A stretch of DNA of 64,000 bases from Nymphaea colorata (lineage: Eukaryota): positions 6,386,001 through 6,450,000 of the forward strand of contig NC_045138.2 in the NCBI RefSeq assembly GCF_008831285.2. Direction: 5' to 3'. The position numbers were made by a program, and so were the translations under genes. Under the pieces are notes generated by a model. The model did not search any database and was not told the DNA's origin. It saw only the letters and a list, made by a program, of their open reading frames with translations. The first letter of the stretch is position 1. Each line of letters opens with the position of its first letter. Positions 8,652 to 58,550 of this stretch are shown here, piece by piece.

Positions 8652-10882
<2,231 letters not shown>

Positions 10883-12729: not shown

Positions 12730-12801
<72 letters not shown>

Positions 12802-12867: not shown

Positions 12868-12990
12868 CATTGTGCATAGGACCATGTGCATGACATGTAC
12901 CCTCAATAGTGGGCCAAGGAACATTGTGCATAGGACTATGTGCATGACACGTACCCTCAAGAGTGGTCCAGAAAGACACATGTCATGCAC
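12868..12990. repeat. 54-bp tandem repeat, about 2.3 copies
   Basis: cattgtgcataggac(c/t)atgtgcatgaca(t/c)gtaccctcaa(t/g)agtgg repeated head to tail. Also present at ~61620-61742. Confidence 0.85.
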
Positions 12991-15005: not shown

Positions 15006-15083
15006 AACTTTGTGGCATGAAACCATGGTTCACTTGGGAAGTTTCATTCAGAGAACACGTATTTTTTTCTTCGATGAAGTTGC

Positions 15084-18000
15084 AATAAGCCTTGATTTCG
15101 ATATGCTTTCTGAGATGGTTGGTCGTTCAGGAAAATCTACTATTAATTAGAACAAAGTGTTTTGAACTTGGTGTTGACTTTTCTTTTATGGAAATTATTA
15201 TGATGTCCTATCCCTGGGGATTGGGACTAGAAGGCAGCTAGTTCTATTTGGAACTCATGGGGCACTGATGTACAAGTTGAAGCACAATAGGGCCTGCAGT
15301 AAAATCAGGTCTGGTACCCTGGGTAGATGATGCTTTCAGCTATCTTGTTGGGTGGCAGGATAAAAACCTCCTCCAATTCTTTGAACAAATCACAGTGACA
15401 TTTTATTATGCCAGAGGCAGTTGCTCTTTTCAGTTTCCTTAAACATATCCTTAATAAGGTGATGCAAACTCCTCTGTTGACCATCACCGTGCCTTCTTAA
15501 TTAATAGGTTCACCACTCTGCGTAACATGCAAAACCGAAGGCCTTATGCATAAGACAAATCATGGAGCAAACTTTATGAAAGAAGGCTTCAGGCATCAGC
15601 TTCTTGTGCTGTAGAAAGAGAGACAATGATATATAAGTTGAAGCGTAGTGAGACTGTTCGCTAAAATCAGGTCTAGTACCCTAGAAAGATGATGCCTTCA
15701 ACTATCTTGTTTGGTGGCAGGATAAAATACTCCTCTTACTCATTGAACATATCACTGTGATGTCTTATTATGCCCGAGGCAGTTGCTCTCATACCATGTG
15801 CACCACATCATTTTCAGCTTCCTGAAACACAAACTTAATAAGTGATGCAAACTCCTTTGTTGACCCTCCCCACACCTTCTTAATTAATAGGTTCACCACT
15901 CCAAGTAACATGCAAGACAAAAGGCCTTATGTACAAGACAAATCATGGAGCAAACTTTATGAAAGAATGTGTCAGGACTGCAGAACATTCTAAATGGGAT
16001 GCTGATGACCTTATAGATTTCTTTTATAGTAAAGCATGGTGTAATGTGCATGAATGTTATATGATTGGTGCCCCCTCCCAAGGTCAAGGAGGAAAAATGT
16101 GTGGAGTGGTTAGAGGGAAACCAGTGAAGGCTCAACTAGTTTGATAAAATTGGAGAAGTGGAAAGTGGGGTTTTATGATATATAATATTATATGTTATGT
16201 TCCATGGCATAGTATATGTCATATAGTTGAATTATAGATAAATATATGTAATGTTTCTTTCAAATAAATTCATGTAAGTGATTCATATAAAATCATGTTG
16301 TAAGCATGATATATACTCAGATCTAATAGCATGAAAGTACTTAGGCAAAATCGCAAAATATGTATGAACATATATATATATATATATCATGCAAAAGGCA
16401 TGAACCATATGTCAAATAAAATAAAATTATTTAAGAAAACAAGTGCAAAAGTAACTTCATCATCTGGCACACATTCACAAGCCTAAGATTCATAGAACTT
16501 GAGATCACCCTCAACAAGGTCAGTAGGATACTAGGATTTGTCCTCCAAGAATAGAATTTAAAGAAAAAAATATCTATATGCAGGAAAGGCATTGAAAATT
16601 AACATTTTAGGAAACAATACATGTATAAGTAAGAAAGCTCATGCCTCAACGTTGGGATTAACAAAGATGGCACTTTTAGATTCTAATCTTATTATTGACA
16701 TCGGATGTTGCCTAATATTTAGCACAACCAACTGTACATTCCAAAGTTCGATTATTCATATCTATATTTTCCAAACTTATGCTTTTGCTTCGTTTGAGAG
16801 AATAATGTTGGTGGGAAGACCTCATATCCACCGTTGTTTGAATGCTTGGATGTCATAATCTCATAAAATGGAAAATATAGTGATAGTTTTCTGTCTGCAT
16901 TATTCCAACCTTTCATGCAACAAGAAAGTAAAACCACATTGTTCTAAGGACAACATTGGGAATTTTTTATTCTTTTACACCAACTCTCCACCGTATATTG
17001 TTTCCTCATGAGATCCCAAATGTCCCTACCGTGACCTATTTTACAAGTTTGCCATGATGACGTAGTTTGTTAGGAGTTCCCCTAATAGTAGGGATAGTTT
17101 TCCCTATCCCCTTCAAAAGACTCCAAACTGAGTTTTGGCATATAAGGTCAAAATGCAGCATTTGATTAACTGAGAAATGAGAGTTGGAATGAGAAATGCT
17201 ATATTCTTCAATTAGAGCACAATTTTTAAGGAGACAAGTTAGCCATTTATGATTCCAAAACTTTGTCGAGCCTTCTTCAATCCTCCATTTAATGCTATTG
17301 GCAATTCCTTTCGAGCTATTGGAGAGACCTTTAAAGAACCAGAGCCAAGAGGAGTTCTTGAATATCTCATGAGGCCAGAAAGTGTCATTTCAGACGTAAT
17401 TCTCATGACAGCACCTGTTCTCACCTAGCCAATGAGAGATCGGCTTAAACAGCAATAGGATCCGAGAGAAAATCAGTGGCTCAGCCACTCTCGGATATAA
17501 CAGCAAGGAGGTGGAGTGGAGGCTAAAGCTGTTTGTTGTGTTGGTGTTGAAACTCGTTGTTTGAGCATGTATTTAAGGCTGTTCTGATCTGTCTTCACGA
17601 TGAATATTCAGCCTATGAGGTAAGGCCTCCATTTCTCAACTGACAACACTATGGCAAGAAGTTCTTCCTCATATGTCGATAACGGTTTGGCTCGATTTGT
17701 GAGAGCCTTTGAAATATATGCTATAGGGTGATTTTCTTGGCTGAGGAAAACTCCTATGCCAATGTCACAAGCATCTGTTTCAATAGTGAAAGGCTTGCTA
17801 AAATCGGGCAAGGTGAGAACAGGTGCTGTCATGAGTGCTGATTTCAATTTCTCAAATGCTTCTCTTGCTTTGTCTGACCAAGCGAATGATCCTTTCTTAG
17901 TCATTTGGGTTAATGGGGCAGCTATGAGCCCCATTAACCCAAATGACTAATGGAGCCTTCGTTGTGTTGGTGTTGAAACTCGTTGTTTGAGCATGTATTT

Positions 18001-18756
18001 AAGGCTGTTCTGATCTGTCTTCATGATGAATCTTCAGCCTATGAGGTAAGGCCTCCATTTCTCAACTGACAACACTATGGCAAGAAGTTCTTTCTCATAT
18101 GTCGATAACGGTTTGGCTCGATTGGTGAGAGACTTTGACATATAGGGTGATTTTCTTGGTTGAGGACAACTCATATGCCAATGTCACAAGCATCTGTTTC
18201 AATAGTGAAAGGCTTGCTAAAATCGGGCAAGGTGAGAACAGGTGCTGTCATGAGTGCCGATTTCAATTTTTCAAATGCTTCTCTTGCTTTGTCTGACCAA
18301 GCAAATGCTTCTTTCTTAGTCATTTGGGTTAGTGGGGCAGCTATGAGCCCGTAGCCTTCAATGAATCTTCTATAATAGCCGGTTAACCAAAGAAATCCAC
18401 GGAGGCTTTTCAAGTCTTTAGGCAATGTTCATTGCCTCTAATTTTTCAGGGTCTGCTTTTACCCCTTCTTTGGATACTATGTGCCCAAGATATCCGATTG
18501 AGGGTTGGCCAAAGCTGCATTTTGACCTCTTAGCATAAAGACGATGTTCCCTCAAAATTTGTAAGGCCATGGTCAAGTGGGCAGCATGTTGCTCTACTGA
18601 CTGGCTATATACGAGAATGCGATCAAAGAATACCAAGATGAAGTTTCTAAGATACCTCCTAAAAACATCATTCATGCACCTCTGGAATGTGGCGGGTGCA
18701 TTGGTTAAGCCAAAAGGCATCACCAAGAACTCATAGTGTCCATCATGAGTTCTAAA
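15084..18756. repeat. Near-identical second copy of 1-7122 with a 3.44-kb internal deletion
   Basis: 15084-17403 matches 1-2340 (offset 15083, then 15063 after a 20-bp deletion). 17423-18756 matches 5781-7122. Confidence 0.97.
17532..18756 (-). pseudogene. Duplicated Ty3/gypsy RT-RNase H fragment
   Basis: ORFs 17608..17934, 18171..18425 and 18418..18807 are nearly identical to those at 5966-7152. An extra small frameshifting deletion lies near 18425. Confidence 0.95.
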
Positions 18757-19099
18757 CTGTGGTTGCAAACTATCAAAAAAAAAATTGAAAGTAAAATGTG
18801 GTTGCAAACTATCAAAAATAATTTCAATATTGAGTTATTACTTGAGTTTTGGTCTTAGTGAAGTCAATAAATGAAAATTAAAATTTAGATCTTAAGAAAG
18901 AGATATTTGAAACAATGAAAAAAAGGAAAAAAAGGAAAACATTTTAAGTCAAGAGGAATAACAAGAAAGAAAGAGATTTTGAAAAGAAAAAAAGAAAAAT
19001 TTTAAAGAGAGAGAGAAGAGGATGTACATGTGTGTGTGTGTAAAGTTGTATATATATGCGTATATGAAAGTTTATAAAAGGAAGATCTTAAATTTAAGA

Positions 19100-19144
<45 letters not shown>

Positions 19145-22100
19145 TTTGTAAAAAGAAGGTGTTAACTCAAAGAGAGAGACATATAGATTCTAGAAAGAGA
19201 AAGTGGGATACACACACAGACATATATATATGATCTATAAAAGAATATGTTAAATCAAAGAGAGAGAAAAGAGAAAGAGAGATATTTATGTACATGTATA
19301 TATATATATAACATGTATATACACATATACACAAATGAAAACTAAAATTAAGAAATATCTTGGAGTATTTTCGACTTCGATTTTTCTATTTTCGCGGAGA
19401 GGAACTTGAGCACATGTAAGAGTTTAGGCTAACTCTCCAAAACCTCATTAAAGAGCGTTCTTATTTTGAATTTCATTTAAAAACATGATTCCAAATATTT
19501 TCATATAAGCATAAAACAATAATCATTTCATCTACTAAAAGAAAATTTATTTCTCCCACCATTAGGTATGGAAGAAAATCAAGCACACACGAAATGAAAA
19601 GTTAATAACATAAGAAAACACTCATTGGGGTCCCTAATCGGGTGATTAAAAGAAATGCTAAACGTAAGGATGCCATGAAGACACATTTGTAAGGGGTTTT
19701 TTGGATTGGACAAATTCCAATATAAAAAATCAACATAATAACAAAGAAATCTCAATCCAAGCACTCATTGTTATCATTCGTTCGCATATTAATTAAGGAA
19801 TCAATAAACTTTGTATGAACCTTTAAAAGCAAAGTATACATTTAAGAGAAGAGAGAAGCATATTTCAATCCTAGATGAAATTTCGTTTCACCTTGCTCAT
19901 GTTTTCGGTTCACTCAAGAATAGCTCTTGACTCTAGAGAGGAGATTTGAGAGTTATCTAACATGGCCATGGGAAGATGAAAAAGGAAAAAAAAAAAAAAA
20001 AGGAAAAGGATTGGGATATTGACTACAGCTAATGAGAATGATTTTAGAAAATTAGTCTCTTTATCCGGATAATCCTAAAGCTTCCTCGAATGAAGCTGCA
20101 AGGTGTTGAAAATGTCTCTCCGAGAGGCCTCCTCATGCTTCCTTGTAGAGTGGAAGTTGGTGAAGCTTTCTCCCAAAGTTGGAGAAGAAGAAGATAAAAG
20201 GAGAGAAATAGAGAGAGAGTTAGGGGAAAGACTCTAAGTCTTCAAATGAGAAAGTATTATAGGTTTTCCAAGAGTTAGCTCACGCATAAGAGAGAAGATT
20301 TTGAAGACATTGATAGAGAGTTTTGGAGTCAAAACTCAAAATTTGAATTTAACAATATTTTCATGCGAATTTCAAGTATTTTTGAATTTATTTTAAATTT
20401 TATTTTTAATAGGTTTTGACCAAATGAGATTGGCTCTCAGACCTGCAAACACCCCTTTGGGAGTGTGGGCAGGGCTAGTGCTCACTTAGCAGACCAAAAC
20501 AGCCCTCAAGGGGTGTTTTTTAGCCAAAAAAGGGCCTGCGTGGTCGTAATTAGGTGCACGTGTGCCGTGGCCAGCAACTGCATCTGGCGTGACAGTGCCA
20601 GGTCGCTGTCGCGGTCGCATTACTCGTGGCAGTGCGTGGCGCGGCTGTGCGCCTTGGTCAGAGCGTATGGCCTAGCCATGTCGGCCAGGACGTTTGGAGT
20701 GTGCAGCCCACTTATTGGTTTGCTTTGGACCAATAAGGGGTGGCTTTTGCCCCAGGCTTCCAAGGTGGTCCCACACATAAAACAACATAAAAATGATTTT
20801 TAAAACACACATTTTAAAGGGAAAAGTGATCTTTTGTTACAGACAGCACCAACTACATTTTGTGTGGTTTCGAGCTCATTTTTAGATCTAGATCGGGTTC
20901 GCTTGGTCGCCAATGTGTTCTAGTTGATGCACGAGGATTCGACCAAGGTTTAGGCTCAAAACATATTTTTAAAGTTTTTTTTTTTGGCACGAGATTGAGA
21001 CGCAAAACGAAAGCATGGTATGTGCATGCGCACATGTCGCTCAGTAGTATCAAAATTTGTTATTTTGGCCTCGACTTTGGATTTTGAGTTGGAATTCTTG
21101 ATTTGAATCCAAACTTCGGTTTTGGATCTAATTTGGATATAAGAGCGGCTTTATGAGTCCGTTTTCCTAGTTTAGACTTAAGTCATTTGTTGGCTCAATT
21201 ACAGACTTTGGCTTCGTATTTCGTATCAAGGTATGTATTTTAGATCTAGGACTTGGATTTGGATCCAAATATTCATCTAAAGTTGAATTTTGGAATTAAA
21301 TCTTACATTTGGATTCAAATATGGGTCTAGAGATTTGGATCGAGTATCGAGAATTGGACTTGGATATGGCTATAGAAGTTTGTCTTGGATCTAGGATCGA
21401 AATTTGAACTTGGATACAAATTTAGAAGTCTGTTTTGGGTTGAGCTTGGACTCAGGGTCCAAAATTAAACCCAAATCACTGTAAAGATGGTTGAAATAAC
21501 CGAGAATCTTGTTTGAATGAAATACAGTCTTCTGAAAAAAATTTGGGGTGATAATAGATGTAGTACTAAAACAGCTGTAATTAAATAAACTTTGGGATCT
21601 CCAGGTATAGATAAAAGAAAAAAACATATCTTGATGTATTCTGGAACGTGGATGTCACTTTTTAGTGTTATTATTGACATTGTATGTTGCTTAACATTTA
21701 GTACTACCAATTGTACATTCAAGAGTTCAGAGTCTTTGGATCTAACTTTCCTACCTATGCTTGTACTTTATTTGAGACAATAAAGTAGGAAAAAAGACCT
21801 CTCATATGCATCATTGTTCAAAAGCTTTCATGCTGTAGATGCATATATAAAATGGGAGATATAGTGCCAACACTAGGGCAACAAATGATTTAAATTTGAG
21901 AGTTATAGTTGAAAAAGCTCATGTGTCAATGCATTCAATAACAAGGACAAGAATTTTATGTTTTAATATTGCAATCATTGAATCCCACCTAAATGTAGCA
22001 TTAACAATTGTATTTTCCAAAGTCATGAGATCCTTTATATTCAAGTTTTTTCCTAATTTAAACTTGTTATTTACTTGAGAGAGTATAGTTGGTGGAAAGA

Positions 22101-22773
22101 CACCTCATATCCACAATTGTCTAAAACTTACATATAAAGTAGGAGATATGGTGCAAAAGCTACTCACAATTGATTCAAATTTACGAGTCATATGTACAAG
22201 TAAAAATGCTCGTCTCCTAATGTATTCAATAACAAGGATGGGAATTTTAGATTTAATGTTAATGTTGTCACTGGATGCTGCCTAAATTTAATGCTAGCAT
22301 TTATACTTTTGAATGTGTGAGTCTCAGTATTTAAATTTCTAATTTAAGCTTATGTGTTATTTGGGAGAGTATAGTTGATGGAATTAAAGACCCCTCATGG
22401 CTTCAAGGCCTCATCGGCTTTGCCTTGCATGCCTTCATGGCTTCACAGCATGGTCAGGTCTTTGTATTTCAAAACAAGGCAGGATTGAAATCTAGGCAGA
22501 ACATAAGAGATGACAAGAGCCACAAGTTGGCTTTCCGAGAGCAAGCAGTTATATGTGGTGGGCTTCATTGTAACAAAATTCTGAAAGCTTGTCTGAGCTG
22601 GCACAAAGGACAGCAATGCTAAGCTAATTTCCTACTTTGTTTCCCTGCTCATCACCTTCTTGGTTTACCTTGCTTATGTCTATGCTTGTTTCCCTTTCTA
22701 GTTCATCAGTCTCCCTGACACACTCGTACGAACTTGACTTGCTGCTTGTACCAATACAACTCTTCTTTACAAT

Positions 22774-23080
22774 TAGGGTTGTACATGAACTGAGTCAAGC
22801 TCGAGCTTGGTCAGCTCGACACTAGTCAGCACATACTTAATTTGCTTGCCTGGACCTTGAGCAGTGAGTCAAGTTGTATAAGGTCAGGTGGAGCTGGACT
22901 TGATAGAGTGGGTCCCAGCTAGAGCTGGGCTTGTTTAAGCTCGTTTACCAACTGACAACTGTCATTTGACTTGATCTGTTTCCTTTGTTTTACGAGTTTA
23001 TGTAGTTTGAATTTGACTCATTTAGAAGCTGAGTTTACTGAGTGAGTTCAAGTCAAGCTCGAGTTGGCTCGACTCATTAT
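22774..23080. mobile_element. Probable non-autonomous hAT-like element remnant
   Basis: Starts TAGGGTTGTAC and is rich in GCTCG/CGAGC-type subterminal motifs. Related starts at 37233 and ~55357. No second terminus or TSD found. Confidence 0.45.
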
Positions 23081-24633
23081 ATATCACGACTCAATGCCAA
23101 TGATACGTGTGGGAACATGGTGAAATCAACCGAATATCTGAATGATATTCAGCTCCTCGACAATGGAAACAGAGTTTCTCTGGTTGAGAATGTCTACTGG
23201 AGAATGTCACCCATCAATTCAGTTAGGAGATTTCTTTACAAGCTAGAAGGTAGTTCCTATTCCAATTCATTATAAAACATAGAGAAAAATACTCATTTTC
23301 CTTAATTTACATAACCTTACTTCCATTGAGTATTGTTTCAAGACATGGAACCAATGCCCTTTACAAAAACTATTTATCCTCGTTGGCACAAAGGCAGTAA
23401 CAAAAGAAAGCCTAAATTTTAGGGCGCTGATTATGTAACAAATTAATTTATGTGGGGGAACCACTATGCAAATAAAATAAATTGTGTGGTTCTAGATGGG
23501 CACACCACACCCAGCTCTACCATTAAGCTAACTGATAATAAGTTGGTGCACATCATAATATATTACACTTAACTTATGGATTTATAGAAGAACGTAAGAC
23601 TTAGTTGTTAAAGTATATATACTCAACAGGAAGGTTATTCGGATTATCTCACATTTTCTTCAGTAGCCAAATTAATTAAATATTGGGAAATATTTTCTCT
23701 CTATTGAAGGAACTAAGAGTTGGTGACTTCAAATGGATATTCACAATGTCTTTCTTCATAACGTATCTTCAGTGAGGTAGAGATTGATATGCAAATTGAA
23801 TATACTGTTGTACGGACTTAAATAATGTCCTTGGAATTGTTGGGTGAGCAACAAGAATATAATATCATACAGCGGCAAACAAGAGAAACGAAACCCCCAC
23901 CCTTCACCCATCCCCCAGGTACCAGGTCTGCTTGAGTGCTTTCGGTGGTGAATTAATACACAATTTAGTGATGCTTAGAAGGTAATATTAAGAACAGTAT
24001 GATTACCTAGTTAAGAAGTGTTCACCTCAAGTATTTATTCAACAACATAAGAGTGACCCTTATTAATATTTCCCTTCTTAAGTTATAAACAAAAAGTAAC
24101 CCCAGAAAAACAGAAAATTTGTTCTAATGATTTTCATATATAATTAAAGTAATAGCCATATTTATTCAAATATGTGTGGTATAGATTCTCTGTCACTAAA
24201 TAAGAAAGAGAGTTGATCATGATATAGATTCTCTTATCCAAATCCGATTCGATAGCATTTATGTTCTACAGCACCTCATGAATTTGAAAATCTCATATTC
24301 TCGAGTTGTTCCAGTCCAACTTGGTTATAAATATGTAATTCATATTGTTAATTCGATGAGAATCAATCTACAAATTCTGAAATATGAGATCTATATAAAG
24401 CTAAAAAATATTAAATAAGACGTTTTCTCAATGCAAAAAGGAAAATTAAGTATTTCAAGTGTAGATTTTAAATCGAATCTAAAATAGATTCTTTCAAGAA
24501 CTATGGATTTTACCGGGATCTTTTGCTATAGCCTATTGTTTACTTGGCGAGGCTAGTTTTATGCCTTGAACAACTTTTGTAGGGCAGTAGATCATACCAT
24601 AAAAAGCGGGCAGGTAAATAGGAAAATGAATAC

Positions 24634-25037
24634 CTGCTCTGCTGCCATGGTGTAAACCGGTGATGTTTTTCCCGCTGCATGATAGAATAACTGCTTTGCT
24701 GCCTCCTTTTCCAGCTTTGGCAATGGATAAATTTCATCCACTATATTCTTTTTCATCTTTTCTCTAGAGATGACGATGGTTTTTAGACGCTCTGTCCTAA
24801 ACAAGAGATTCTTCAGATCCTTCTCAGACCAAACATCATCTAAGACAATCAAACGATTCCCAGAGCACTTAATTTGCTGCTCACTCAGCCCATGCGCTAT
24901 CTGCCTCACAGCATCTTTTACGTCTTCAAACCTGGGCACCTCTCCACCAAGCAACTGAGACCATATTCTTTTGAGAATGTCCAGTGTATCTGGCGATCTC
25001 GAAACCGTGAAATAGAAGATATTCTTACCGAACGAGC
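24634..25037 (-). pseudogene. Isolated NB-ARC exon of an RPW8-type helper NLR (NRG1/ADR1-like)
   Basis: NIFYFTVSRSP (RNBS-A), VPRFED..DAVRQ, LIVLDDVW (kinase-2), KTIVISR (RNBS-B) and YPLPKL..EAAKQLFYHAA (RNBS-C). Stop-free and bounded by CAG| and |GTATTC. No P-loop, RPW8 or LRR exons nearby. Confidence 0.88.
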
Positions 25038-25051
25038 CTGACAACAGCCGA

Positions 25052-26619
25052 CCCAGATTTTCAGGCAGACCCCTAAACGTGTGACTAAAATAAAAAAAAG
25101 CTGTTCACTTCCATTTTAAAAAGAGTGACCATGTAGGAAAAGAATAACCTTCATAGAATCAAACAACAAGACAGTAAATGTCATTTTTTGTGAATAATTA
25201 GGAAAACTTATTTTACATCAAAAAATAGAAATAAAAATGTTCTATTTTTATCAAACGAAGCTTATAATTAATCATATTTAAATTTGATAAAATAACTTAA
25301 AGTTCAAAGATAAAAAAGTAGTTGCACTTTAGATTTAGTTATCTAATTTATCTCCTGGAGGTAACATATGACATTAGCAAGGACACAATTCTGAGTATTG
25401 CAAATGGGCCAAATCTGGGTCACGAGCTATTTGAGACCACCATACATAAACCAACATAATCAGATCTAGATCTGGTATGGAAACTATCTGAGGATTCAGA
25501 TCTAATACCTCTTTAGCACGAACACGCAACCCATTTGGCTGGTCAATGGTCACCCTCATAAAGTCTCAAAAGTAGGGATATAAACGGGCCAGGCATATCA
25601 GATTATCAAACAAATACCGAATCCATGGACGTGGTAAAAAAAAATTAGATCCATTCAAATTTAAATTCAAATACGGTTTGCTGTTTCACCACTAAACATA
25701 AATTAGAATAACGTACCCACCAGTATCCGATAAAGATCCTATCTACATAATGAAGCTGGATCTTACATTAGTCGGATCCGAATTAGGTTTTCCAAAAAAT
25801 CAGCTCAGGATTCAAATTTGAATTATTCAAATATGCGTAGTTAAGTTAGTTAAAAATTAAACCCAACACGAAACCAAAACTATATTGCAACCTAAAAGTC
25901 AAGACACAAGACAACTGGTGTAGAATTTTTCTGTTTTAAATTATTTCTCTTTGTTTAATTAGAAGTAACATAGTCTTTTTAAGTATGTCTTGACATTTTT
26001 TATTTACAATTTTTTCCGTAAACTTATGTGCAAATTTTCAAATATTAGTCAGTCTTTTGTGACAGATCAAAGTTGAGCAGTTTGCTGTAAAGGCCTCACA
26101 CATAAATGAATGAATTAGATCAATAATAAACAAATAAATGGATCACTTGATTTACTAGGCAAAGGTCTAAGCATAATGTTCTTGTTGTCTACCTACCTGT
26201 AAACTTCATCATGAAAGTTCCACAGTCAAAAAATTCCAGAGCATGTTATAAAAACTTTACAGCATCAACTGAATAAATTTTTTGATATATATTTTTCCAT
26301 AGATGCTGCTATATTTTTTGAAGTAAGAAGACATAACTTTAGTCTCTAAGCAGTGGCACATTCAAGAGGATGGCATAACTTTATCAGCTGCAATTCCTAC
26401 ATGTTAATGTGAGAGGAAAGACTCAAAGACCAGAGCAAGTTAAAACGAAATGACCCACAACATTGGCATGCTCGTCCAAAACCTTTTTGAAAACTTTTTA
26501 ACCTATTTGTAAAGCATTGTAAATGGGCCAATCGTATTAGCTTCAATAATGACACATTCCATCTACTTCATGGGAGAGAGAAAGGCATCTCCTCTGCTTT
26601 CCATTCTCTTTCTTCTTTC

Positions 26620-26657
<38 letters not shown>

Positions 26658-26799
26658 GTCCAAAACCTTTTTGAAAACTTTTTAACCTATTTGTAAAGCA
26701 TTGTAAATGGGCCAATCGTATTAGCTTAATGACACATTCCATCAACTTCGTGGGAGAGAGAAAGGCATCTCCTCTGCTTTCCATTGTCTTTCTTCTTTC

Positions 26800-26862
<63 letters not shown>

Positions 26863-28800
26863 CTGTTCTCTTTCATCCGTATTTTTTTCTCTTATTCATT
26901 TCTCTCTCTCTATCCCCCTCTCTCTTCTCTCTAGTTCTTCAAGGGGATAAAGAGAAATGGTGCCATAAGAAACACCTCAAATTAAACATGGGAGGAGGAC
27001 CACCTTAAAACTTTTATTTTCTTTTTGATCCCCTTTCTCTATTTATTTTCTTCTATTTCATTATTCTGTTTCTCTCTCCCTCTTTCACACACACACACAG
27101 ATTCTCTCTCTATCTCTCACACACACTTTATATATACATTGAGAGATAGAGATGTGTAAGGAATAAGAAAAGAAATAGAAAAGGTGGCCAATAAAGAGAG
27201 AAAAGGCCTTAGGGTTGTCATTTGCACAATTCATAACATGTGTCCCTATGACACCATTGCTCATTGTCTCCTTAAGCAAGGAGAGAGAAGAGGGAGAAGG
27301 TGAGAAAGGAATTAAAGAAGAAATATGAAGGAAAAAAGAATGAGAAAAATATATATAAAAAAGAAAAATAGAAGAAGGAGAACAGAAAGCATAGGACGTT
27401 CCCTTCTCTCTCAACTGTGGCCAGCAAAGGGTGATCTTATCACACAAATGTACAAGCACACAAATGTACAAGCACTAGGGGAGAGAATAGCAGAAATGCT
27501 GAGAGTCATTCTCTCTCCTTGCTGTTGCAGTTGATGATCTGGTGCTACTTTTCTCCAGTTATCCACTCCACCTCCTCCTTCTCTCTCTCTCTCACTGTGT
27601 GCCTCTCTCATTAGGAAAAAACTGGAGTTATTGGGAAGTTCCATTCAGAGAACGTGTATTTTTTTCTTTGATGAAGTTGCAATAAGCCTTAATTTCGATA
27701 TGTTTTTTGAGATGGTTGGTCCTTCAAGAAAATCTACTATTAATTAGAACAAAGTGTTTTGAACTTGGTGTTGAGTTTTCTTTTATGGAAATTATTATGA
27801 CGTCCTATCCTTGGGGATTGGGTCATGGGGCATCAGCTTCTTTTGCTTTAAAAGGAGAAACACAGATGTACAAGTTGAAACACAATAGAGCTTTGCAGTA
27901 AAATCATGTCCGATACCCTGAGAAGATGATGCTTTCAAGTATCTTGTTGGGTGACATGATAAAAGCCTCCTCCAACTCTTTGAACAAATCACAATGACGT
28001 TTCATTATGCCAGAGGCAGTTGCTTTCTTTCCATTGGTTTTGAAGTTTCAGCTAAACACAAAACCAATTTGAAAACGCTCTGGTCTGGTTAGAAAGAGAC
28101 GTTTGAGGACAAAAACATCTGCGAAATAGTTACAATACAGTTGTGGCAGTTTTGTTTTCTTTTTGGATACGTAACATTTTGGAGAGAATAATATTAGTTG
28201 CTTCCAATCGTATCATAAACACTATTTGGCTACATCTCAAAGTTTAGATCCGAAAGCAGTTAACAGAACGTCCGTTTTCCTCAATAAATTCCTGGCAAGC
28301 TCAAGCAACAAATTCCTTTGGACAAATTCATTAAAAGGGTTGTTGTGCCTAAAACTTGTATTCGTGGTCGACCCCCACTTTCCCCTTTTGCTTTCATCAC
28401 CATACAAGGTTCGCTGTATGATGAAAAGATAAACCTCTTAGGTTCAGTGCATTTTCTATCTTGTTCCGAGAAGAAAATTAACTGAGTCATGTCAGTTTTG
28501 TCCAGCCTACCTAGCAGCCTCCTAAGCTAGGAGACTTTAATTTAAGTTATATATTTTGATTCGTTGATGGTGTATATATACAAGCAGTTACATATATATC
28601 GTACGACATTCTAGAGTATATCTCCAGACTTGGTAATAGATTAATAAAGAAGAGAATCAATTGGTTACAAGATAACTTACAAGAAAAGCGTTATTAACAG
28701 GCCCCTTCTTCACTCCTTGCCATATTGAATGATATATCTCAAAATATGGATCTGGCAGACATAAATGAAGAAGAGAATGATCGATTGGTTATAGCAGTTA
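25052..28800. repeat. Duplication block homologous to ~32597-36500
   Basis: Colinear matches, e.g. ORFs 27707 vs 34859 and 28226 vs 35907. 28440-28790 is almost identical to 36140-36500. Confidence 0.9.
26470..26860. repeat. Local tandem duplication (~185 bp), each unit ending in (AT)n
   Basis: ctcgtccaaaacctttttgaaaac...ctttcttctttctgcatatata occurs twice. Single copy at ~33785 and ~59187. Confidence 0.9.
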
Positions 28801-28927
28801 GTGAAGAGAAATTACAAAAAAAACAATATCAAGCGGATCTGGCTGCAGAGATTATAAATAAAGAAGAGAACGATCTATTGGTTATAGCCGTTACTGAAGA
28901 GAAATTACAAGAAAAGCAATATCAACC
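28640..28927 (+). repeat. Degenerate ~87-bp tandem repeats (2 clear units plus 1 partial)
   Basis: ORF 28725..28991 repeats DLA..IN.EEND.LVIAV.EEKLQ.KQYQ twice. Confidence 0.75.
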
Positions 28928-29279
28928 CTATTCAATATGGAGAGAATATCTCAACACCTTCCTTTTTCTGCTAATTCGATTTTTTAGATGAATGAGGATC
29001 AGCTAAAATTTGATGTGGTAGACAGTCATATATCGGTTGAAAGAGGTGGGCACGCCCTCTGCTTTCTGTTCTCTTTCTTCTGTTTCTTTTTTCACATATT
29101 TTTTCTGCTCTCTTTCCTTCGTATTTCTTCTCTAATTCCATTCTCACCCTCTTTCTCTTCTCTCTCCAGGTAAATCAAGTCGATCACTGTACATATCGGC
29201 CTTGAGTCATCGAAGCCCATTCTTGCGATCAGATCAAGAAACTTGAATCCGGTCGACGCAACACATGCACATGCACACA

Positions 29280-32200
29280 CATGCACATGCACAAAGAGGA
29301 TCAGGGCCACCACAACAAGGGAGAGAATAGTTCCAATGCTGAGGAGTCACCCTCTCTCCTTGCTGTGTCTATTGACGAGCTGGCGCCCCCCTTCTTTAGG
29401 TATCCACCTCCACCTTCTCCTTCTCTCACTTTTTGCCTTTTTCATCAAGGAAAAACTGGGGTTATTGGGTTGTTTCATTCAAAGAACACATATTGTTTTT
29501 CTTCAATGAAGTTGCAATAAGCCTTGTTTTGATCCGTTTTTGAGATGTTTGGTCCTCCATTCTCTTTGGAAATCTAGTATTAATTAGAACAAAGTGTTTT
29601 GAGTTTTATTTTATAGAAATTATTGTGATGTCATATGCCTGGCAGTGGGTCGCTAGTTTACATATGGAACTCATGAGACATCAACTTTCTTGTGCTGCAA
29701 AAAGAGACACTGATATATAAGTTGAAACATAGTGAGACAGTTTACTAGAATCAGGTCTGCTACCCTGGGAAGATGATGCCTTCAACTATCGTGTTTGGTG
29801 GCAGGATAAAATACTCCTCCTACTCACTGAACCTCCTACTCACTGAACGTATCACTGTGATGAGTTATTATGCCCAAGGCAGTTGCTCTCTTTCCATTGG
29901 TTGATTCCATATCATGTGCACCACATCATTTTCAGCTTCCTGAAACATAAACTTAATAAGTGATACAAACTCCTACGTTGACCATCCCCACCCCTTCTTA
30001 ATTAATAGGTTCACCACTCCATGTAACAAGCAAGACAAAAGGCCTTATGTACAAGACAAATGATGGAGCGAACATTATGAAAGAACGTGTCAGGACTGCA
30101 GAACATTCTAAATGGGATGCTGATGACCTTGTAGATTTCTTTTATAGTAAAGCATGGTGTAATATGCATGAATGTTATATTATTGGTTCCCTCCCCCCCA
30201 CCTCCCGAAAGTCAAAGAGGAAAAAGGTGAAGAGTGTGTTTAGAAGGAAACAGGTGAAGGGTCAACTACTTTGATAAAATTGGAGAAGTGTAAAGTGGGG
30301 TTTTTGGTTACGTAGGCATATCTGATTATATGATATTATATGTTCTGTTCCATAGCATAGTATATGTCATATAGTTGATTTATAGATAAATATATGTAAT
30401 GTGTCTTTTAAAGAAATTCATGTAAGTGATACATAAAAAACTCATGTTGTAAGCAGGATATATACTCATATCAAATAGCAAGAAAGTACATAGCCAAAAT
30501 CACAATATATATATATATGTATATATATAAAGCAAAAGGCATGAACCATATATCAAATAAAATAAAATTATTAAGAAAACAAGTGGAAAAGTAACTTCAT
30601 CATTTGGCACACATTTGCAAGCATGTGATTCGTCGAACTTGAGATCACCCTCAACAAGCTCAGTAGGATACTAGGATTTGTTCTCCAAGAATCGAACTTA
30701 AAGAAAAAAATATCTATATGCAGAAAAGGCACTAAAAATTAACGTTTTAGGCAATAATACATGTATAAGTAAAAAAGGTCAAGCCTCGACGTAGGGATTA
30801 ACAAAGATGACACTTTAGATTCTAACCTTATTATTGACATTGGATGTTTGCAAATATTTAGCACTACCAATTGTACATTCCAAATTTCGATTATTCATAT
30901 CTATATTCTCCAAACTTATGCTTTTGCTTCATTTGAGAGAATAGAGTTGGCGGGAAGACCTCATATCCGTCGTTGTTTGAAAACATGGATGTCACAATCT
31001 TATAAAAAGGAAAGTGTAGTGGCAGGACTAGAGTAGCAAACGGTTCAAGTTTGGAAGCTGTACATATAAAGAAAAAAATCCATGCATTTAAGTATTCAAT
31101 AATAAGGATGGAAATTTTAGGTTTCATTATTAATAATGGTCCCAAATACTGACATATAAAGTAGCAAACGGTTCAAGTTTGGAAGCTGTACATATAAAGA
31201 AAAAAATCCATGCATTTAAGTATTCAATAATAAGGATGGAAATTTTAGGTTTCATTATTAATAATGGTCCCAAATACTGATGGTCCAACCTTTTGTTTAG
31301 CAAAACTAGCTATACAACAGAAGCAGTTACTCATACTTTACATGAAGATGGTTAAACATAGCTACAATATCAAAAGAGGTGTCAATATGGAGCATAACAA
31401 ACATGTGACTGAACCTATTAAGCGAGAAATGAGAGTTGGAACACGAAATGCTATATCCTTCAATTAGAATACAATTGCTAAGGACACAAGTTAGCCATTT
31501 ATGATTCCAAAACTTTATCAAGCCTTCTTCAATCCTCCATTTAACGGTATTGGCAATTCCTTTCCAGCTATTGGAGAGGCCTTTAAAGAACCATAACCAA
31601 GAGGAGTTCTTGAATATCTCATGAGACCAGAAAGTGTCATTTCAGAGGTAATACCTGCAGAGCAAGAAGAGCAATTTGACTTTGACTAATTTCACAAACA
31701 TCATTAATGTCTACCTTACCTTCCTTAATCAAATGACTCATCACATTCCAAGAAATGAGATGTCTGAATCCAGTCTGAGAAGAGGAGTCCCAAAGGAAGG
31801 AAGATATGGGAGATTAGATTTCTTTAATGACCCTCACAAGAAGACGGAATACTACTGCCCAATATTGAATAATGTAAATTATTACATGATTTATAAGGCA
31901 CAACCTGCCAAAAAACAAGACGAGCCTTCACTTCCGACTGCCATGCTGCTTGTTAACTTTGAGAATTATGCACTCACACCATTCCTCTCTCAACCGGTCA
32001 TGGAACAGTGAGACTCGAAGTTAACGAATGGAAAAACTCCTGACCAACCAATCTTGCACAGAGCTAATCCAAAGGACCATCAAATCGTCCACATGAAATG
32101 GACATACTGACTGGAGTTAATCCTAAGCCCCACGCAATTGGACAACTTCTCCAACATAGATTCCACCATTTTCAAGGGATTGACCTTTGCCAAAAAAAAT

Positions 32201-32575
32201 AGCAGCACATCACACATGAAGAAGACTATCACTGAACACTTACCCTCACAGGGGAAGGATGTGCGAAGAAAACTCTTTATCTCTAGCATATTCATAGACA
32301 AAACTAAAGAAGGCCTCTATGACAATAATAAAAAGATAAGGGGAAAATGGTCACCCAGCCTCATACCTCGTTTTAGGTTAAAAAACCTACCTGGGCTACC
32401 ATTCGCCAAAACTGCTGCCAAAGCAATAGAGACATAGGTGAAAACTCTATTTCAACATTCTTAATTAAACTCTAGATGTAATTGGGTAGATATAAGGAAC
32501 AACCAATTCACCCTGTCATAAGACTGAGAGATCAAGTTTGAGATAAACCTTTTGAGAACATTCTTCATTTTGTTC
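29280..32575. repeat. Duplication block (core repeat plus LINE) homologous to ~41680-45460
   Basis: ORF pairs 29281/41651, 31264/43435, 31676/44507. A 128-bp local tandem duplication lies at ~31033-31280. Confidence 0.9.
31270..32575 (-). mobile_element. Degenerate L1-type LINE fragment, copy 2 (truncated within RT)
   Basis: Colinear with 2105-3400 and 44123-45460. Confidence 0.88.
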
Positions 32576-34225
32576 TCCCTAGGTAACTTTTGCCCAGATT
32601 TTCAGGCAGACCCCTAAACGTGTGACTCAAATCAATAAAAACTGTTCACTTCCATTTTAAAAAGAGGAGTGACCATGTAGGAAAAGAATAAGCTTCATAG
32701 AATCAAACAACAAGACAATAAATGTCATTTTTTGTGAAGAATTAGGAAAACTTATTTACATAAAAGAATAGAAATAAAAATGTTCTATTTTTTATCAAAC
32801 GAAGCTTATAATTAATCATATTTAAATTTGATAAAAGCAACTTAAGTTCAAAGATCAAAAAGTAGTTGCACTTTACATTTAATTATCTAATTTATCTCCT
32901 GGAGGTAACATATGACATTAGCAAGGACACAATTCCGAGTATTGCAAATGGGCCAAATCTGGGTCACGAGCTATTTGAGACCACCATACATTAACCAACA
33001 TAATCAGATCTAGATCTGGTATGAAAACTATGTGAGGATTCAGATCTAATACCTCTTTAGCACTGACACGCGACCCATTTGGCTGGTCAAATGGTCACCC
33101 TCATAAAGTCTCAAAAGTAGGGATATAAACGGGTAAGACATATCAGATTATCGAACAAATACCGAATCCATTTAACTGGATGTGGTAAAAAAATTAGATC
33201 CATTCAAATTTAAATTCAAATACGGTTTGCTGTTTCACCACTAAACATAAATTCAAATAACGTACCCACCAGTATCTGATAAAGATCCTAACTACATAAT
33301 GAAGCTGGATCTTACATTAGTCGGATCTGAATTCGGTTTTCCAAAAAATCAGCTACCCAATGGCTCGGATAAATGTGATTAAATGCTCCATCTGATGTAA
33401 GTGGGAGGATTACTCCATCTAAACCCGGATGGAGAAATCCACAAGTCCATCATGAGCATGTCATTGCTTAAAGATTTCCACTGTGTTGTATACAAAGTAT
33501 GGACTTGATGTCTACCTACCTCTGAACTTCATCATGAAAGTTCCACAGTCAAAAAATTCGAGAGCAATTCTAAAAACTTTACAGCAGCAACTGAATAAAT
33601 TTTTTGATATATATTTTTCCATAGATGCTGCTATATTTTTTGAAGTAAGAAAACGTAACTTTAGTCTCTAAGCAGTGGCATGTTCAAGAGGATGGCATAA
33701 CTTTATCAGCTGCAATTCCTACTTGTTAATGTGAGAGGAAAGACCAGAGCAAGTTAAAACGAAAGGACCCACAACATTGGCATGCTCGTCCAAAACCTTT
33801 TTGAAAACTTTTTAACCTATTTGTAAAGCATTGTAAATGGGCCAATCTTATTAGCATCAATAATGACACATTCCATCTACTTCGTGGGAGGGAGAAAAGC
33901 ATCTCCTCTGCTTTCCATTCTCTTTCTTCTTTCTTCTTTCTTCATATATATATTTCCATTCTTTTTCCTTCGTATTTTTTTTCTCTTACTCATCTCTCTC
34001 TCTCTCTCTCTCTTTCTTCTATCTAGTTCTCAAGTGGATAAAGAGAAATGGTGCCATAAGAAACACCTCAAATTAAGCATGGTGAGGAGGACCACCTTAA
34101 AACCTTTTTTTTCTTTTTGATCCCCTTTCTCTATTTATTTTCTTCTATTTCATTATTCTGTTTCTCTCTCCCTCTTTCACACACACACACACACACACAC
34201 ATTCTATCTCTCTCTCTCTCTCACT

Positions 34226-34277
<52 letters not shown>

Positions 34278-43439: not shown

Positions 43440-46300
43440 CCCAAATACTGATGGCCCCACCTTTTGTTTTGCAAAACTAGCTATACAGCAGACGCAGTCA
43501 CTCATACTTTACATGAAGATGGTTAAACATAGCTACAATATCAAAAGAGGTGTCACTCTCTATGCCATGTGGAGGTTCCAAAGCCTCCAGCAAACCCCTC
43601 TCTTCAGAAGCGCTATCCACTTTGTCATCCCCTTGCTCCTCGAAAATAAATCTCACCCCAATTAGCTCATGCTTCAAATTAAGCTCCACTTTCTTTGGAT
43701 CGATCACTTTCACCATTCCCCCACGCAGACCTTCAATTGATAATTCTCCCTTTAGTTTCTTCAAGTCTTTTAGTTCATTAATATTGCAACCTCTTGTCTT
43801 CCCTTTGTCATCGCATACCATAAACCTATGCAAGGTCCGTAAATTAGTAAGCTTCCCCAGACCTTCAGCTACGAATTTCAATTCCTTTGTATCTTTCAGC
43901 CCAAGATACCTCAAGTTGCACAGTTCGCCCATTTCCTTGGGCAACTCTTGAATGGCACCATGACTTAAATCCAATGTTTGCAAGTTACAGAGTCTGCCGA
44001 TTGAACTGGGCAACCGTCTCACTTTAGACTTGCTTAGATCAAGATATTTTACAAGTGCAAGGCATTGAATGCAATTTGGCAACTCATCCATTTCACATCC
44101 CCTCAATAACATAGTGCAAGGCATGGAGCATAACAAACATGTGACTCAACCTATTAAGCGAGAAATGAGAGTTGGAACACGAAATGCTATATCCTTCAAT
44201 TAGAATACAATTGCTAAGGACACAAGTTAGCCATTTATGATTCCAAAACTTTATCAAGCCTTCTTTAATCCTCCATTTAATGCTATTGGCAATTCCTTTC
44301 CAGCTATTGGAGAGGCCTTTAAAGAACCATAACCAAGAGGAGTTCTTGAATATCTCATGAGACCAGAAAGTGTCATTTCAGAGGTAATTCTTACGAACAA
44401 ATTTGGCCTGGGCTTAACTTGAAGCAAACCTGCAGAGCAAGAAGAGCAATTTGACTTTGACTAATTTCACAAACATCATTAATGTCTACCTACCTTCCTT
44501 AATCAAATGACTGATCACATTCCAAGAAATGAGATGTCTGAATCCAGTCTGAGAAGAGGAGTCCCAAAGGAAGGAAGATATGGGAGATTAGATTTCTTTA
44601 ATGACCCTCACAAGAAGATGGAATACTACTGGCCAATATTGAATAATGTAAATTATTACATGATTTATAAGGCACAACCTGCCAAAAAACAAGATGAGCC
44701 TTCACTTCCAACTGGCATGCTGCTTGTTAACTTTGAGAATTATGCACTCACACCATTTCTCTCTCAACCGGTCATGGAACAGTGAGACTCGAAGGTAACA
44801 AATGGAAAAACTCCTGACCAACCAATCTTGCACAGAGCTAATCCAAAGGACCATCAAATCCTCTACATGAAATGGACATACTGATTGGAGTTAATCCTAA
44901 GCCCCACGCAATTGGACAACTTCTCCAACATAGATTCCACCATTTTCAAGGGATTGACCTTTCCCCAAAAAAGTAGCAGCACATCACACATGAAAGAGAC
45001 TATCACTGAACACTTACCCTCACGGGCGAAGGATGGTGTGAAGAAAACTCTTATCTCTAGCATATTTATAGACAACCCTAAAGAAGGGCCTCTATGACAA
45101 TAATAAAAAGATAAGGGGAAAACGGTCACCCAGCCTCATACCTCGTTTAAGGTTAAAAAACTTACCTGGGATACCATTCACCAAAACTGCTGCCAAAGCA
45201 ATAGAGATATAGGTGAAAACTCTATTTCAACATTCTTAATTAAACTCTACATGTAATAGGGTAGATATAAGGAACAACCAATTCACCCTGTCATAAGACT
45301 TTGAGAGATCAAATTTGAGATAAACCATTGGTTTCTTATCCTTCTTCATGCTATGAATGATCTCATGTGCAAGGAAGATGTCGTCATGTATGACTTTATT
45401 GGTGGAAAAAACTGCTTGGTCATCTAATACAATCCTTTTGAGAACATTCTTCATTTTGTTGACCATAATTTTTATGATCAATTTATACATACTGTTAAAT
45501 AAAGGAATGGGTTGGAACTTTTGAAGAGTTGTTACACCTTCCGTCTTAGGAATAAGGGTGATTTGTGTGCGATTGACCTTTTGAACAAGCCTTCTTATTA
45601 AAAGAACAACTGTACCATTTTACTCCCATCTGCACCTACAATATGCCATTTGGCCTACAGTATCCCAAAAGGATCGAAAGACTATACACTTGTGCTCCTC
45701 CAATGTGATGAGCTGGTTCCGCTCCTCACTTTCACTGCAAGAGACACATGGACATCCACTGAGCATGTTCCCTTCACCTTTTTCGATTCCAAGGAGCTGT
45801 TGGAAGCAACCATAGTAAGCTGCTAGGATGGCATGTGGATCCCTAATCATGGAGCCTTCCACCTCCAGCTCAGTGATGGAACTTATTCTTCTCCTACTTC
45901 TGGTAATAGTCTGGAAATAAGTGGAATTACGATCACCTTCCAACATCCATCTCACCCTAGCCGGTGTCTCCAACTGCTCTGTTCCTCATCAAGGCACTTC
46001 CTTATTGATCCCTCAGAATCCTCTCTTCATCTGCATCCACCTACCCTCTAGATCATGGATCATTTGACATATTTAATTAGAACTTTATGGCTTTGATCAT
46101 AAGTTCAACTGGTTCAAGCTGACCCTTCCTTCAACGAGCTAGAGGCATGTGGGTTGCTTTAAGCTTTCCCAAAAACTTGAGCATGGGGTATCCAAAAATG
46201 TTCACCCCCATTCCTGAGCGATCACAAGCTGGCATTCCTTCCTCCGCTGCAAACATCTAAAGTAATGAAATATTTGAGGCCTAAGAATGTCGCTTTTGTT
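43440..46300 (-). mobile_element. Degenerate L1-type LINE, copy 3, interrupted by an NLR fragment
   Basis: ORF 45620..45973 ARVRWMLEGDRNSTYFQ and ORF 45236..45490 KFDLSKSYDRVNW. Colinear with copy 1. Confidence 0.92.
43556..44122 (-). pseudogene. LRR-region fragment of an RGA2/RGA3-like CC-NLR disease-resistance gene
   Basis: ELPNCIQCLALVKYLDLS, LPSSIGRLCNLQTLDLS, ELPKEMGELCNLRYL, GLGKLTNLRTL, INELKDLKKLKGELSIEGL and LLEALEPPHGIE. Stop-free over 567 bp. Confidence 0.93.
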
Positions 46301-55629: not shown

Positions 55630-58550
55630 GTATGTATATGTATCTATATATATATATGTATGTATATGTATCTATATATATATATGTATGTATGTATGTA
55701 CTCAAGTTCATGTAGTTTGAGTTTGACTCATTTAGAAGTTCAAGTTGGCTCGATTCATTATATATCAGGACTCAATGCCAATGATACGTGTGGGAACATG
55801 GTGAAATCAACCAAATATCTGAATGACATTCAGCTCCTCAACAAGGGAAAGAGAGTTACTCTGGTTGAGAATGTCTACTGGTGAATGTCACCCATCAATT
55901 CAATTAAGAGATTTCTTTACATGCTAGATCCTTTCCCAATTCATTACCCAAGATAAAGAAAAATACTCATTTTCCCTTATTTACATAACCTTACTTCTAT
56001 TGAGTATTGTTTTGCATCTCATAAATCCTTTCTTAAAACATGGAACCGATGCCCTTTCCAAAAACTATTTATCCTCCTTGGCACAAAGGCAGTAACTAAA
56101 GAAATCCTAGATTTTAGGGCACCGATTATGTAACAAATCAATTTATGTGGAGGAACCATTATGCACATAAAATAAATTGTGTGGTTTCTACACGGGCAAG
56201 CCACACCAAGCTCTGCCATTAAGCTAATTGATAATAAGTTGGTGCACAGCATAATATATGACACTTAAATTATGGATTTATAGAAGAACGTAAAATTTAG
56301 TTGTTAAAGCATATATACTCAACAGGAAGGTTATTCGGATTATCTCACATTCGCTTCAGCAGCCAAATTCATTAAATATTGGGAAATATTTTTTCTCTAT
56401 TGAAGGAAGGAACTAAGAGTGGTGACTTCAAATGGATAGTCGCAATGTCTTTCTTCATAGGGCATCTTCAATGGGGTAGAGATTGATATGCAAATTGAAT
56501 AAGCTGTTGCACGGACTTAAATAAGGTCCTCGGAATTGTTGGGTGAGCAAGAAGAATATTATATCATACCGCACCAAACAAGAGAAACGATACCCCCACC
56601 CTTCCCCCCAGAGTACCAAGTCTGCTTTCGGTGGTGAATTAATATACAATTTAGTGATACATAAAGGGTAATATTAAGAACAGTATAATTACCTAGTTAA
56701 AAAGTGTTCAAGTATTTATTCAACCATTTTCATGAAAGGAGTGACCCTTATTAATATTTCCATTCTTAAGTTATAATAAAAAAGTAATCCAACAAAAACA
56801 GAAATTTTCTTGTAACGAATTTATATCTGATTAAAGTAATAACCACATTTATTCAAGTGTATGTGGTATAGATTATCTGTCACTAAATAAGAAAGACAGT
56901 TGATCATGATATTCTAGTATATGCGGTATAGATTCTCTGACCCAAATCCGATTCGTTAGCATTCTGGTACTACAGCACCTCATGAATTTTAAAATCACAT
57001 ATTCTTGAGTTGTTCTAGTCCAACTTGGTTATAAACATGTAATCCATATTCTTAATTCGATCAGAATCAACATACAAATTCTGAAATATATCTATATAAG
57101 GCTAAACAATATTAAATAACACATTTTCTCAATGCAAAAAGGATATTAAGTATTTCAAATGTAGATTTTAAATCGAATCTACAATAGATTCTTTCATGAA
57201 GTATGGATTTTACCGGGATCTTTTGTCATATCAGCAAAAATATGTCAGATTAAATCAAGGGCAGATCGATATATGTTAAATTTGAAGTAATCAAACTCCT
57301 CTTAGCCTAGTGTTTACTTCTCGAGGCATGTTTTATGCCTTGAACAACTTTTTGTAGGGATGACTTTCACCCTAGGTAACTTTTGCACAGATTTTCAGGT
57401 AGACATCTAAACGTGTGACTAAAATCCATAAAAATTGTTCACTTCCATTTTAAAAAGAGGAGTGACCACGTAGGAAAAGAATAACCTTCATAGAATCAAA
57501 CAACAAGAAAATAAATGTCATTTTTTTGTGAGAAATTAGGAAAACTTATTTTACATCAAAAAATACAAATAAAAATGTTCTATGTTTTATCAAACGAAGC
57601 TTATAGTTAATCATATTTAAATTTGATAAAAACAACTTAAAGTTCAAAGATCAAAAAGTAGTTGCACTTTAGATTTAGTTATCTAATTTATCTCCTACAT
57701 ATGGCATTAGCAAGGACACAATTCCAAGTATTGCAAATGCGCCAAATCTGGGTCACGAGCTATTTGGGACCGCAATACTTATACCATCATAATCAGATCT
57801 AGATCTGCTATGGAAACTATGTGAGGATTCAGATCTAATACCCCTTTAGCACAAACCGGACACCCATTTGGCTGGTCAATGGTCACCTTCATAAAATCTC
57901 AAAAGTAAGGGATTTAAACGGGCCAGACATATCACAGATTAACAAACAAATACCGAATCGATTTAACTGGATGTGGTAAAAAAATTTTAGGTTCATTCAA
58001 ATTTAAATTGACATACGGTATGCAGCTTCACCACTAAACATAAATTCGAATAAAGTACCCACCAGTATCTGATAAAGATCCTATCTACATAATGAAGCTG
58101 GATCTTACATTAGTCGGATCCGAATTCAGTTTTCCAGAAAATCAGCTCCAGATTCAAATTGAAATTATTCAAATATGATTAGTTAAATTTGTTAAAAATT
58201 AAACCCAACCTGAAACCAAAACTATATTCCAACCTAAAATGTCAAGACACAAGACAACTGGTGTATAATTTTTCTGTTTTAAATTATTTCTCTTTGTTTA
58301 ATTAAAAGTATCATAGTTCTTTTAAGTATGTCTTGACATTTTTTATTCACAATTTTTTTGTAAAATTATGTGCAAATTTTCAAATATTAGTCAGTCTTTT
58401 GTGACAGATCAAAGTTGAGCAGTTAGCTGCAAAGGTCTCACACATAAATGAATGAACTAGATCAATAATAAACAAATAAATGGATCACTTGATTTACTAG
58501 GCAAAGGTCTAAGCATAATGTTCTTGGACTTCTGAGCAAATAGTGCATGA

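Follow-up and report, generated by a model that had tools for sequence, protein, structure and literature searches.

The window analyzed here, a 64,000-nucleotide stretch of contig NC_045138.2 of Nymphaea colorata, is made up of recombined repeat units, arranged as an array and interspersed with pieces of retroelements. Inside one copy of a multi-copy repeat (copy 1 of block C; Table 1), 467 bp stand in place of 26 nt that are known from other copies. On the minus strand, this insert consists of 14 nt ending in AG, a stop-free exon of 404 nt (25037-24634), and GT followed by 47 nt. The exon leads from phase 1 to phase 0, two bases completing the phase-1 codon at its start, and matches the Pfam family NB-ARC with an E value of 6.5e-06, above the curated cut-off. 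The GC content of the insert is 43%, compared with 29% and 32% in the 500 bp on either side.

A first-pass annotation of the same DNA had reported a 467-bp insertion that holds a single stop-free exon with both splice sites. The insertion is real, as alignment with copies 2 and 3 and the empty-site contigs demonstrate, and the 404-nt exon, its phases, and its two splice sites are confirmed on the minus strand. Several dimensions needed adjustment. The replaced sequence, given as about 27 bp at ~57360-57386, is present but measures 26 nt; the right part of the empty site, placed at ~32577-32597, does occur in copy 3, as the last 16 nt of that site (Table 1). The intron flanks of 14 and 49 nt hold for the insert as such, but the intron shared with the donor comprises 19 nt on the acceptor side and 50 nt on the donor side, of which the outermost 5 nt and 1 nt, respectively, are microhomology.

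The exon contains neither the P-loop nor the GLPL motif nor any part of RPW8; in the donor protein the P-loop lies at 178 and GLPL at 340, both encoded in neighboring exons. A nucleotide-binding domain of the NB-ARC type needs a P-loop. The captured exon alone therefore cannot form such a domain.

Table 1. Position of the insert, its parts, and related features (window coordinates)
Feature	Position	Strand	Basis
Copy 1 (block C) of the multi-copy host repeat, bounded by microsatellites; limits approximate	18777..27086	.	Self-BLAST, arm comparison, Pfam scans, many family contigs in X1 and X2
RNL-derived insert, 467 bp, replacing 26 nt of host repeat; no target-site duplication	24585..25051	-	Alignment with copies 2 and 3; empty-site contigs in X1 and X2
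RNL NB-ARC exon, 404 nt, RNBS-A to RNBS-C region with kinase-2	24634..25037	-	134/134 aa identical to P0003 residues 200-333; both ends agree with spliced joints in X4
Donor intron, 19 nt, ending AG; outer 5 nt (25052-25056, CCCAG on +) are donor/host microhomology	25038..25056	-	X1 contig ends at 25056, loose end departs from 25056 elsewhere; CCCAG follows empty site in copy 3
Donor intron, 50 nt, beginning GT; 1-nt microhomology at 24584	24584..24633	-	In X1 and X2, a loose end of the donor type precedes 24584; the shared contig begins at 24590
Empty site, copy 2, 26 nt	57360..57385	+	Alignment with copy 1
Right part of empty site, copy 3 (last 16 nt), left side fused to LINE fragment	32577..32592	+	Self-comparison, alignment
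Second NLR fragment, CNL LRR, 567 bp stop-free, in place of 2 nt of a different repeat unit (31385-31386 is the empty site)	43556..44122	-	Alignment, Pfam; 19 kb from RNL exon

Host repeat array and other gene fragments

Runs of (TA)n/(CA)n delimit the repeat units of the window, which have degenerate inverted arms of about 280-460 bp with 67-71% identity. In the unit at 27131-34178, arms of about 285 bp are 71% alike (score 211 vs 53 for the best shuffle). Copy 1 of block C ends in an arm of about 280 bp, which corresponds, in inverted and degenerate form, to the arm that opens the neighboring units. The ends of the exon-bearing unit itself are 64% alike over 180 nt (102 vs 59 for shuffles) in one of the three end pairings, the other two being at the shuffle level, as is the arm pairing of copy 2. 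It should be noted that the unit ends lie in microsatellites, where a target-site duplication (8-11 bp in Pack-MULEs) cannot be read. A Pfam scan of 141 stop-free frames of the window found no transposase.

Degenerate palindromes, 67-71% alike and centered on (CA)n(TA)n runs, are located at 26866-27454, 33890-34592, 49105-50026, and 59284-59969; they likely represent abutting ends of microsatellite-targeted MULE-like units. Two segments of block C, 20063-21203 (1.1 kb) and 22511-22657 (147 bp), are present in copy 1 and absent from copy 2, with no evident target-site duplication. Large recent duplications (96-98.5% identity) relate 1-2345 to 15084-17408 and 10883-15246 to 59657-64000. The first 163 bases of the window are identical to the last (63838-64000), which suggests a higher-order period of about 63.8 kb. 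Further elements include a 1.27-kb element at 38535-39801 with inverted ends of about 370 bp (83% alike), two copies of a 393-bp palindromic MITE-like element (13397-13789 and 62149-62541), and fragments of gypsy-type, copia-type, and LINE elements (5781-10746, 17423-18756, 2693-3604, 45239-47115, and 4938-5285).

The RNL exon is not the only NLR sequence in the array. The CNL LRR fragment at 43556-44122 entered another unit with a loss of 2 nt, without a target-site duplication, and with no splice sites seen. Since this piece, too, replaced target nucleotides without duplicating the site, insertions of NLR fragments recur in the window. Its closest relatives among the best 120 of 697 matches are Nymphaea CNLs with up to 80% identity; no identical donor was found among those 120. 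Two other pieces resemble coding sequence. A short exon-like piece of beta-galactosidase (about 37763-37848, plus strand; Pfam GH35, E 3.2e-09), which apparently lies between AG and GT, has no second GH35 match among the scanned frames; it is possibly another captured exon or a part of a long-intron gene. About 100 protein-like codons in two copies of a unit (14715-15002 and 63471-63782, plus strand), which have no Pfam match, may be a further captured gene fragment.

Donor gene and its place among the RPW8-type NLRs

In a search of longer proteins, four of 335 candidates matched the exon, the best being P0003 (XP_031484125/6 of Nymphaea colorata, 451 aa, RPW8 and NB-ARC). All 134 residues encoded by the exon are identical to residues 200-333 of this protein. 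According to precomputed annotation, the donor model has an RPW8 domain at its N-terminus (PF05659) and no listed LRR family; it stops where its paralog P0005 goes on, and it may be incomplete. The annotation of P0005, for its part, appears to read through the intron preceding the captured exon.

Identity of the annotated protein across the exon would also be expected if the exon lay in its original place, either in a decayed RNL gene or in an annotated gene with giant repeat-filled introns. We give this explanation next to no credence. No other donor exon is present in the 64-kb window, i.e., within 24 kb downstream and 39 kb upstream of the insert; two 30-nt flanks of the donor type are matched nowhere in the window, even with 3 mismatches allowed; and other copies of the repeat have empty sites, and a second locus carries the exon with its ancestral intron flanks. 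A decayed gene in place is rejected on the first two of these grounds. The surrounding block C sequence is thus not homologous to donor introns; the match of the flanks to donor introns, which the first-pass annotation had proposed to check, is confined to the 19 and 50 nt at the edges of the insert.

The second locus is apparent in a set of short-read DNA contigs, X1. Two contigs cover the exon without a difference (24590-24829 and 24816-25056) and branch at both outer ends. One branch leads into the repeat, by way of junction contigs at 24555-24619 and 25027-25081 with 0 differences; the other leads to different sequence before 24584 and after 25056. A second set, X2, comes from a different study under a different organism label. 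Among the rows shown, which do not include its junction contigs, X2 contigs begin at 24590 and stop at 25056, just as in X1. X2 also contains a homolog that differs at 5 of 76 nt and has a flank resembling the donor-type flank, and because this homolog carries a similar right flank, the donor-type flanks are identified as ancestral intron. Over 24631-25057, X2 has an identical exon plus homologous pieces of about 90-94% identity, whose sequences are consistent with a second haplotype or subgenome.

The same contigs bear on the possibility that the insert is a chimera of the assembly, to which we assign a negligible probability. A repeat array invites such errors, and the junction contigs are short, with 30 and 25-30 letters on the shorter side, i.e., below the 31-letter bar for a bridge; moreover, X1 possibly stems from the same sample as the window. 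Nevertheless, both junctions are found in the short-read data with 0 differences and at depths of 29 and 17, and the branch points of X1 recur in X2.

A 53-row tree served to place the exon. Besides the exon itself, it comprised 12 CNLs and a hand-picked 40 of the 121 RNL-type matches, with no TNL rows and with clade labels taken from source names. The 41 RNL rows, including the exon, separate from the 12 CNL rows at 100/100. Nine ADR1 rows form a 100/100 clade that includes neither the exon nor the donor, and membership in ADR1 is rejected on this basis. The exon and the donor are instead sister to a 19-row group that holds At5g66900-like (NRG1) rows (94/89; branch 0.77). A quick tree agrees on the placement, and the best solved-structure matches are RPW8-type NLRs. 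The assignment to the RNL clade is therefore borne out, and a placement outside it, named beforehand as the alternative, did not occur. The fuller label proposed for the exon, "helper-NLR (NRG1/ADR1-like)," survives in part: the position is beside the NRG1 group and outside ADR1, and an LRR is missing from the donor model. "Helper" is a label that holds for the clade only; in this donor, such a function is putative. P0003, P0004, P0005, and P0006 make up a fast-evolving, Nymphaea-only lineage of RNLs on the branch of 0.77.

Junctions, relative age, and transcripts

The tract common to donor and insert spans 24584-25056 (473 bp) with at most one difference, which we infer to lie at 24589 from the contig branch point, the base itself not being read directly. 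A divergence of at most 1 in 473 bp corresponds to 0.2%, with an upper 95% bound of 1.2%. Copies of the host repeat, by comparison, differ by 4.1-15% substitutions in 9 comparisons; the capture is therefore far younger than the duplications of the repeat. Empty sites are not confined to the window: the DNA contigs of X1 and X2 include 5 distinct variants in 8 listed rows, and the exon-free state is consequently ancestral. The polarity that had been read from the window's own copies, an insertion, thus holds, and its support comes from these contigs beyond the window. In copy 3, the fusion of the empty site to a LINE fragment is a second breakpoint inside the same 26 nt. A single complex event producing both the insert and copy 3 is rejected, given that the right-hand copies differ by 4.1% and the exon by about 0.2%. 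In a listing that leaves off 45 pieces, one junction contig appears per side, with the above depths of 29 and 17 compared with 64 and 54 on the exon (depths are not copy numbers). A single copy without later spread is suggested.

At the junctions, 26 nt of the target were lost, and there is neither a target-site duplication nor polyA. The sequence common to donor and repeat is CCCAG (5 bp) at the right junction; at the left junction it is a single G. The chance of a microhomology of at least 5 bp at either junction is about 0.01, whereas the 1-bp overlap on the left is no more than expected by chance. A retrocopy is rejected in view of the intron stubs on both sides and the lack of polyA and of a target-site duplication. 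Capture by a Helitron is likewise rejected, no terminus having been identified at the junctions as judged by eye. The first-pass annotation had proposed a recent capture from an RNL gene at the DNA level and had suggested a search for the donor and its divergence. The donor locus, the retained intron stubs, and the divergence of about 0.2% bear this out.

It had also been proposed that the exon could be spliced into a chimeric transcript or seed siRNAs against the donor. Transcript evidence comes from X4 and X6, which are guessed to be RNA runs, no run listed as containing the sequence being on record as RNA; it is the exon-to-exon joints that reveal splicing. In about 6 of every 100 reads of the raw RNA runs X21 and X22, no match occurred, not even on the exon, and these runs thus speak neither for nor against a chimera. 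Five contigs (three of X4, two of X6) cover only 24627-25040 and run on into the donor's own exons, their loose ends being translated as the donor's neighboring sequences, NSLCRDPDI before the exon and RCDGLPLAL after it. Since these contigs join the exon to its neighbors in the donor, both splice phases are confirmed and the donor is expressed. None of the 5 contigs extends into the repeat, and depth is nil over 24520-24624 and 25045-25120. Rare forms are dropped from contigs, and the copy has the same exon sequence as the donor, so that a rare chimera could escape contig data. The chimeric transcript was thus not borne out, and we see very little chance that one is made.

A broader version of this proposal is that the exon has been recruited, either by splicing into a transcript of the repeat or of a neighbor, or by being kept for siRNAs with which the donor RNL is tuned. 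The open frame and both GT/AG ends are intact, and both exonization (PMC13317346) and, in maize, siRNA cross-talk (bioRxiv 10.1101/777037) are described for captured fragments. In our opinion, recruitment is nonetheless most improbable. Intactness is expected at 0.2% divergence, and retention of both splice sites is an outcome with a chance of about 10% for a 473-bp tract overlapping the exon. In addition, just 19 nt of the acceptor intron were captured, a stretch too short to include a branch-point-like motif (by a loose pattern) that the donor has at -31. Neither a partner exon nor a P-loop is found near the insert, and the three listed loose ends of the X4 and X6 contigs are donor exons. 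A detectable effect of siRNAs on the donor, taken by itself and judged by analogy with maize, would be unlikely but worth reckoning with. The insert is probably an inert, silent passenger.

Origin of the insert and comparison with known systems

We consider it likely that the insert, a near-identical genomic copy of an exon of a Nymphaea RPW8-type NLR, served as filler DNA when a double-strand break in an old repeat was repaired; it is probably inert. The model fits because microhomology is combined with a deletion, a target-site duplication is absent, and older, empty elements exist (PMC8277862, PMC2671141, PMC3445842); microhomology and deletion without a target-site duplication are the signature of gap filling as described in PMC8277862 and PMC2671141. 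A plausible course of events would begin with a double-strand break in the host repeat copy, followed by invasion of the RNL gene, or a template switch to it, at the 5-bp microhomology. About 470 bp would then have been synthesized on the RNL template, and the other side closed by end-joining with the 1-bp overlap, in a manner resembling SDSA. The insert would not have been transposed since and would have been silenced along with its host repeat. The data fit SDSA, templated insertion by polymerase theta, and replication template switching alike.

The break might instead have been made by a transposase, the exon being copied during repair of the gap in the manner of Ds filler. Positions 57355-57374 of copy 2 form a weak 20-nt hairpin between direct repeats, AACTTTT(T)G, of 8-9 nt. 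According to this explanation, the hairpin would represent fused ends of a hAT element of the Ac/Ds type, or else the host MULE-like unit would have been excised. The hairpin agrees with the first 9 of the 11 nt of the 5′ TIR of Ac/Ds and with 10 of the 11 nt of the 3′ TIR, as these are given in PMC3260210, and three rearrangements fall on the site: the insert, the LINE junction of copy 3, and a deletion variant in X1 and X2. However, all four non-deleted contig variants depart from the TIR-like form. In place of the ATGAC of copy 2, three of them show ACGGC or ATGGC; the TIR match may therefore be a product of methylation decay. The right direct repeat is offset from the hairpin by 3 nt, and a fold at least as good occurs in 7% of the 712 segments of 40 nt sampled from copy 2. 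The hallmarks of hAT/Ds filler, both 11-bp TIRs with an 8-bp target-site duplication, are not found around the insert, which retains just 5 nt of the left "end" (TAGGG) and nothing of the right, and none of the 141 scanned frames encodes a transposase family. A transposase-made break is, in our view, distinctly unlikely.

Bolder still is a scenario in which the hairpin, possibly a relic of fused hAT ends, is a recurrent break site, the microsatellite-bounded array is a sink repeatedly patched with NLR sequence (the RNL exon and, 19 kb away, the CNL LRR piece), and the silenced, 99.8%-identical exon feeds siRNAs onto the truncated RPW8-NB-ARC donor. It is a long shot; if true, an immune receptor of an early-diverging angiosperm would be held in check by a product of DNA repair. 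As it stands, the locus illustrates how plant repeats gain gene fragments without transposition, with the donor, the empty sites, the microhomology, and the relative age all visible, and it is a warning that near-identical orphan exons enter into NLR counts and read mapping for this genome. Its import would be greater if siRNAs from the copy acted on the expressed donor, or if NLR genes were over-represented as repair templates in this repeat family. No published account of the locus was found in the literature on Nymphaea RNLs and NLR exon capture, supplements and most subscription papers being outside the scope of that search.

Compared with known systems, the donor resembles the RNL receptors ADR1 and NRG1 in having RPW8 and NB-ARC and in its 100/100 separation from CNLs. 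Unlike the complete RPW8-NB-ARC-LRR receptors, the insert is one internal exon, and the donor model lacks an LRR and sits on a long, Nymphaea-only branch.

The host array is reminiscent of the MULE arrays SaTar, MuTAnT, and TAFT and of Pack-MULEs as portrayed in PMC5907723 and PMC4486113: it is a head-to-tail array with (TA)n/(CA)n boundaries and long, degenerate inverted arms, and it contains several gene fragments. It differs from them in that its units are 7-8 kb long, recombined, and interrupted, with arms only 67-71% alike. Furthermore, in the exon-bearing copy the left arm finds a weak match or none, no transposase was found in the window, and amplification of the exon is not seen.

Filler DNA and SDSA duplications, as described in PMC2671141 and PMC3445842, share with the insert microhomology, a target deletion, the lack of a target-site duplication and of polyA, and the retention of intron; its size also falls within the reported range of a few hundred bp. 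With 26 nt, the target deletion somewhat exceeds the 1-15 nt that PMC2671141 tabulates, and the donor, being outside the 64-kb window, is not of the proximal kind (<5 kb).

The single-copy Pack-TIRs that arise by transposition-independent gap filling (PMC8277862) were described in animals, and the status of the present host as a TIR element is only suggested; under gap filling, donors are also expected to be close by, with a bias toward the same chromosome. In other respects the likeness is extensive. In both cases a non-TE fragment lies in an older element with microhomology at the breakpoint, empty copies of the element exist, the capture postdates the spread of the element, and the fragment is apparently single-copy. 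Capture of gene fragments of this sort is already known, and the present locus is a clean, well-resolved, and ordinary instance of it.
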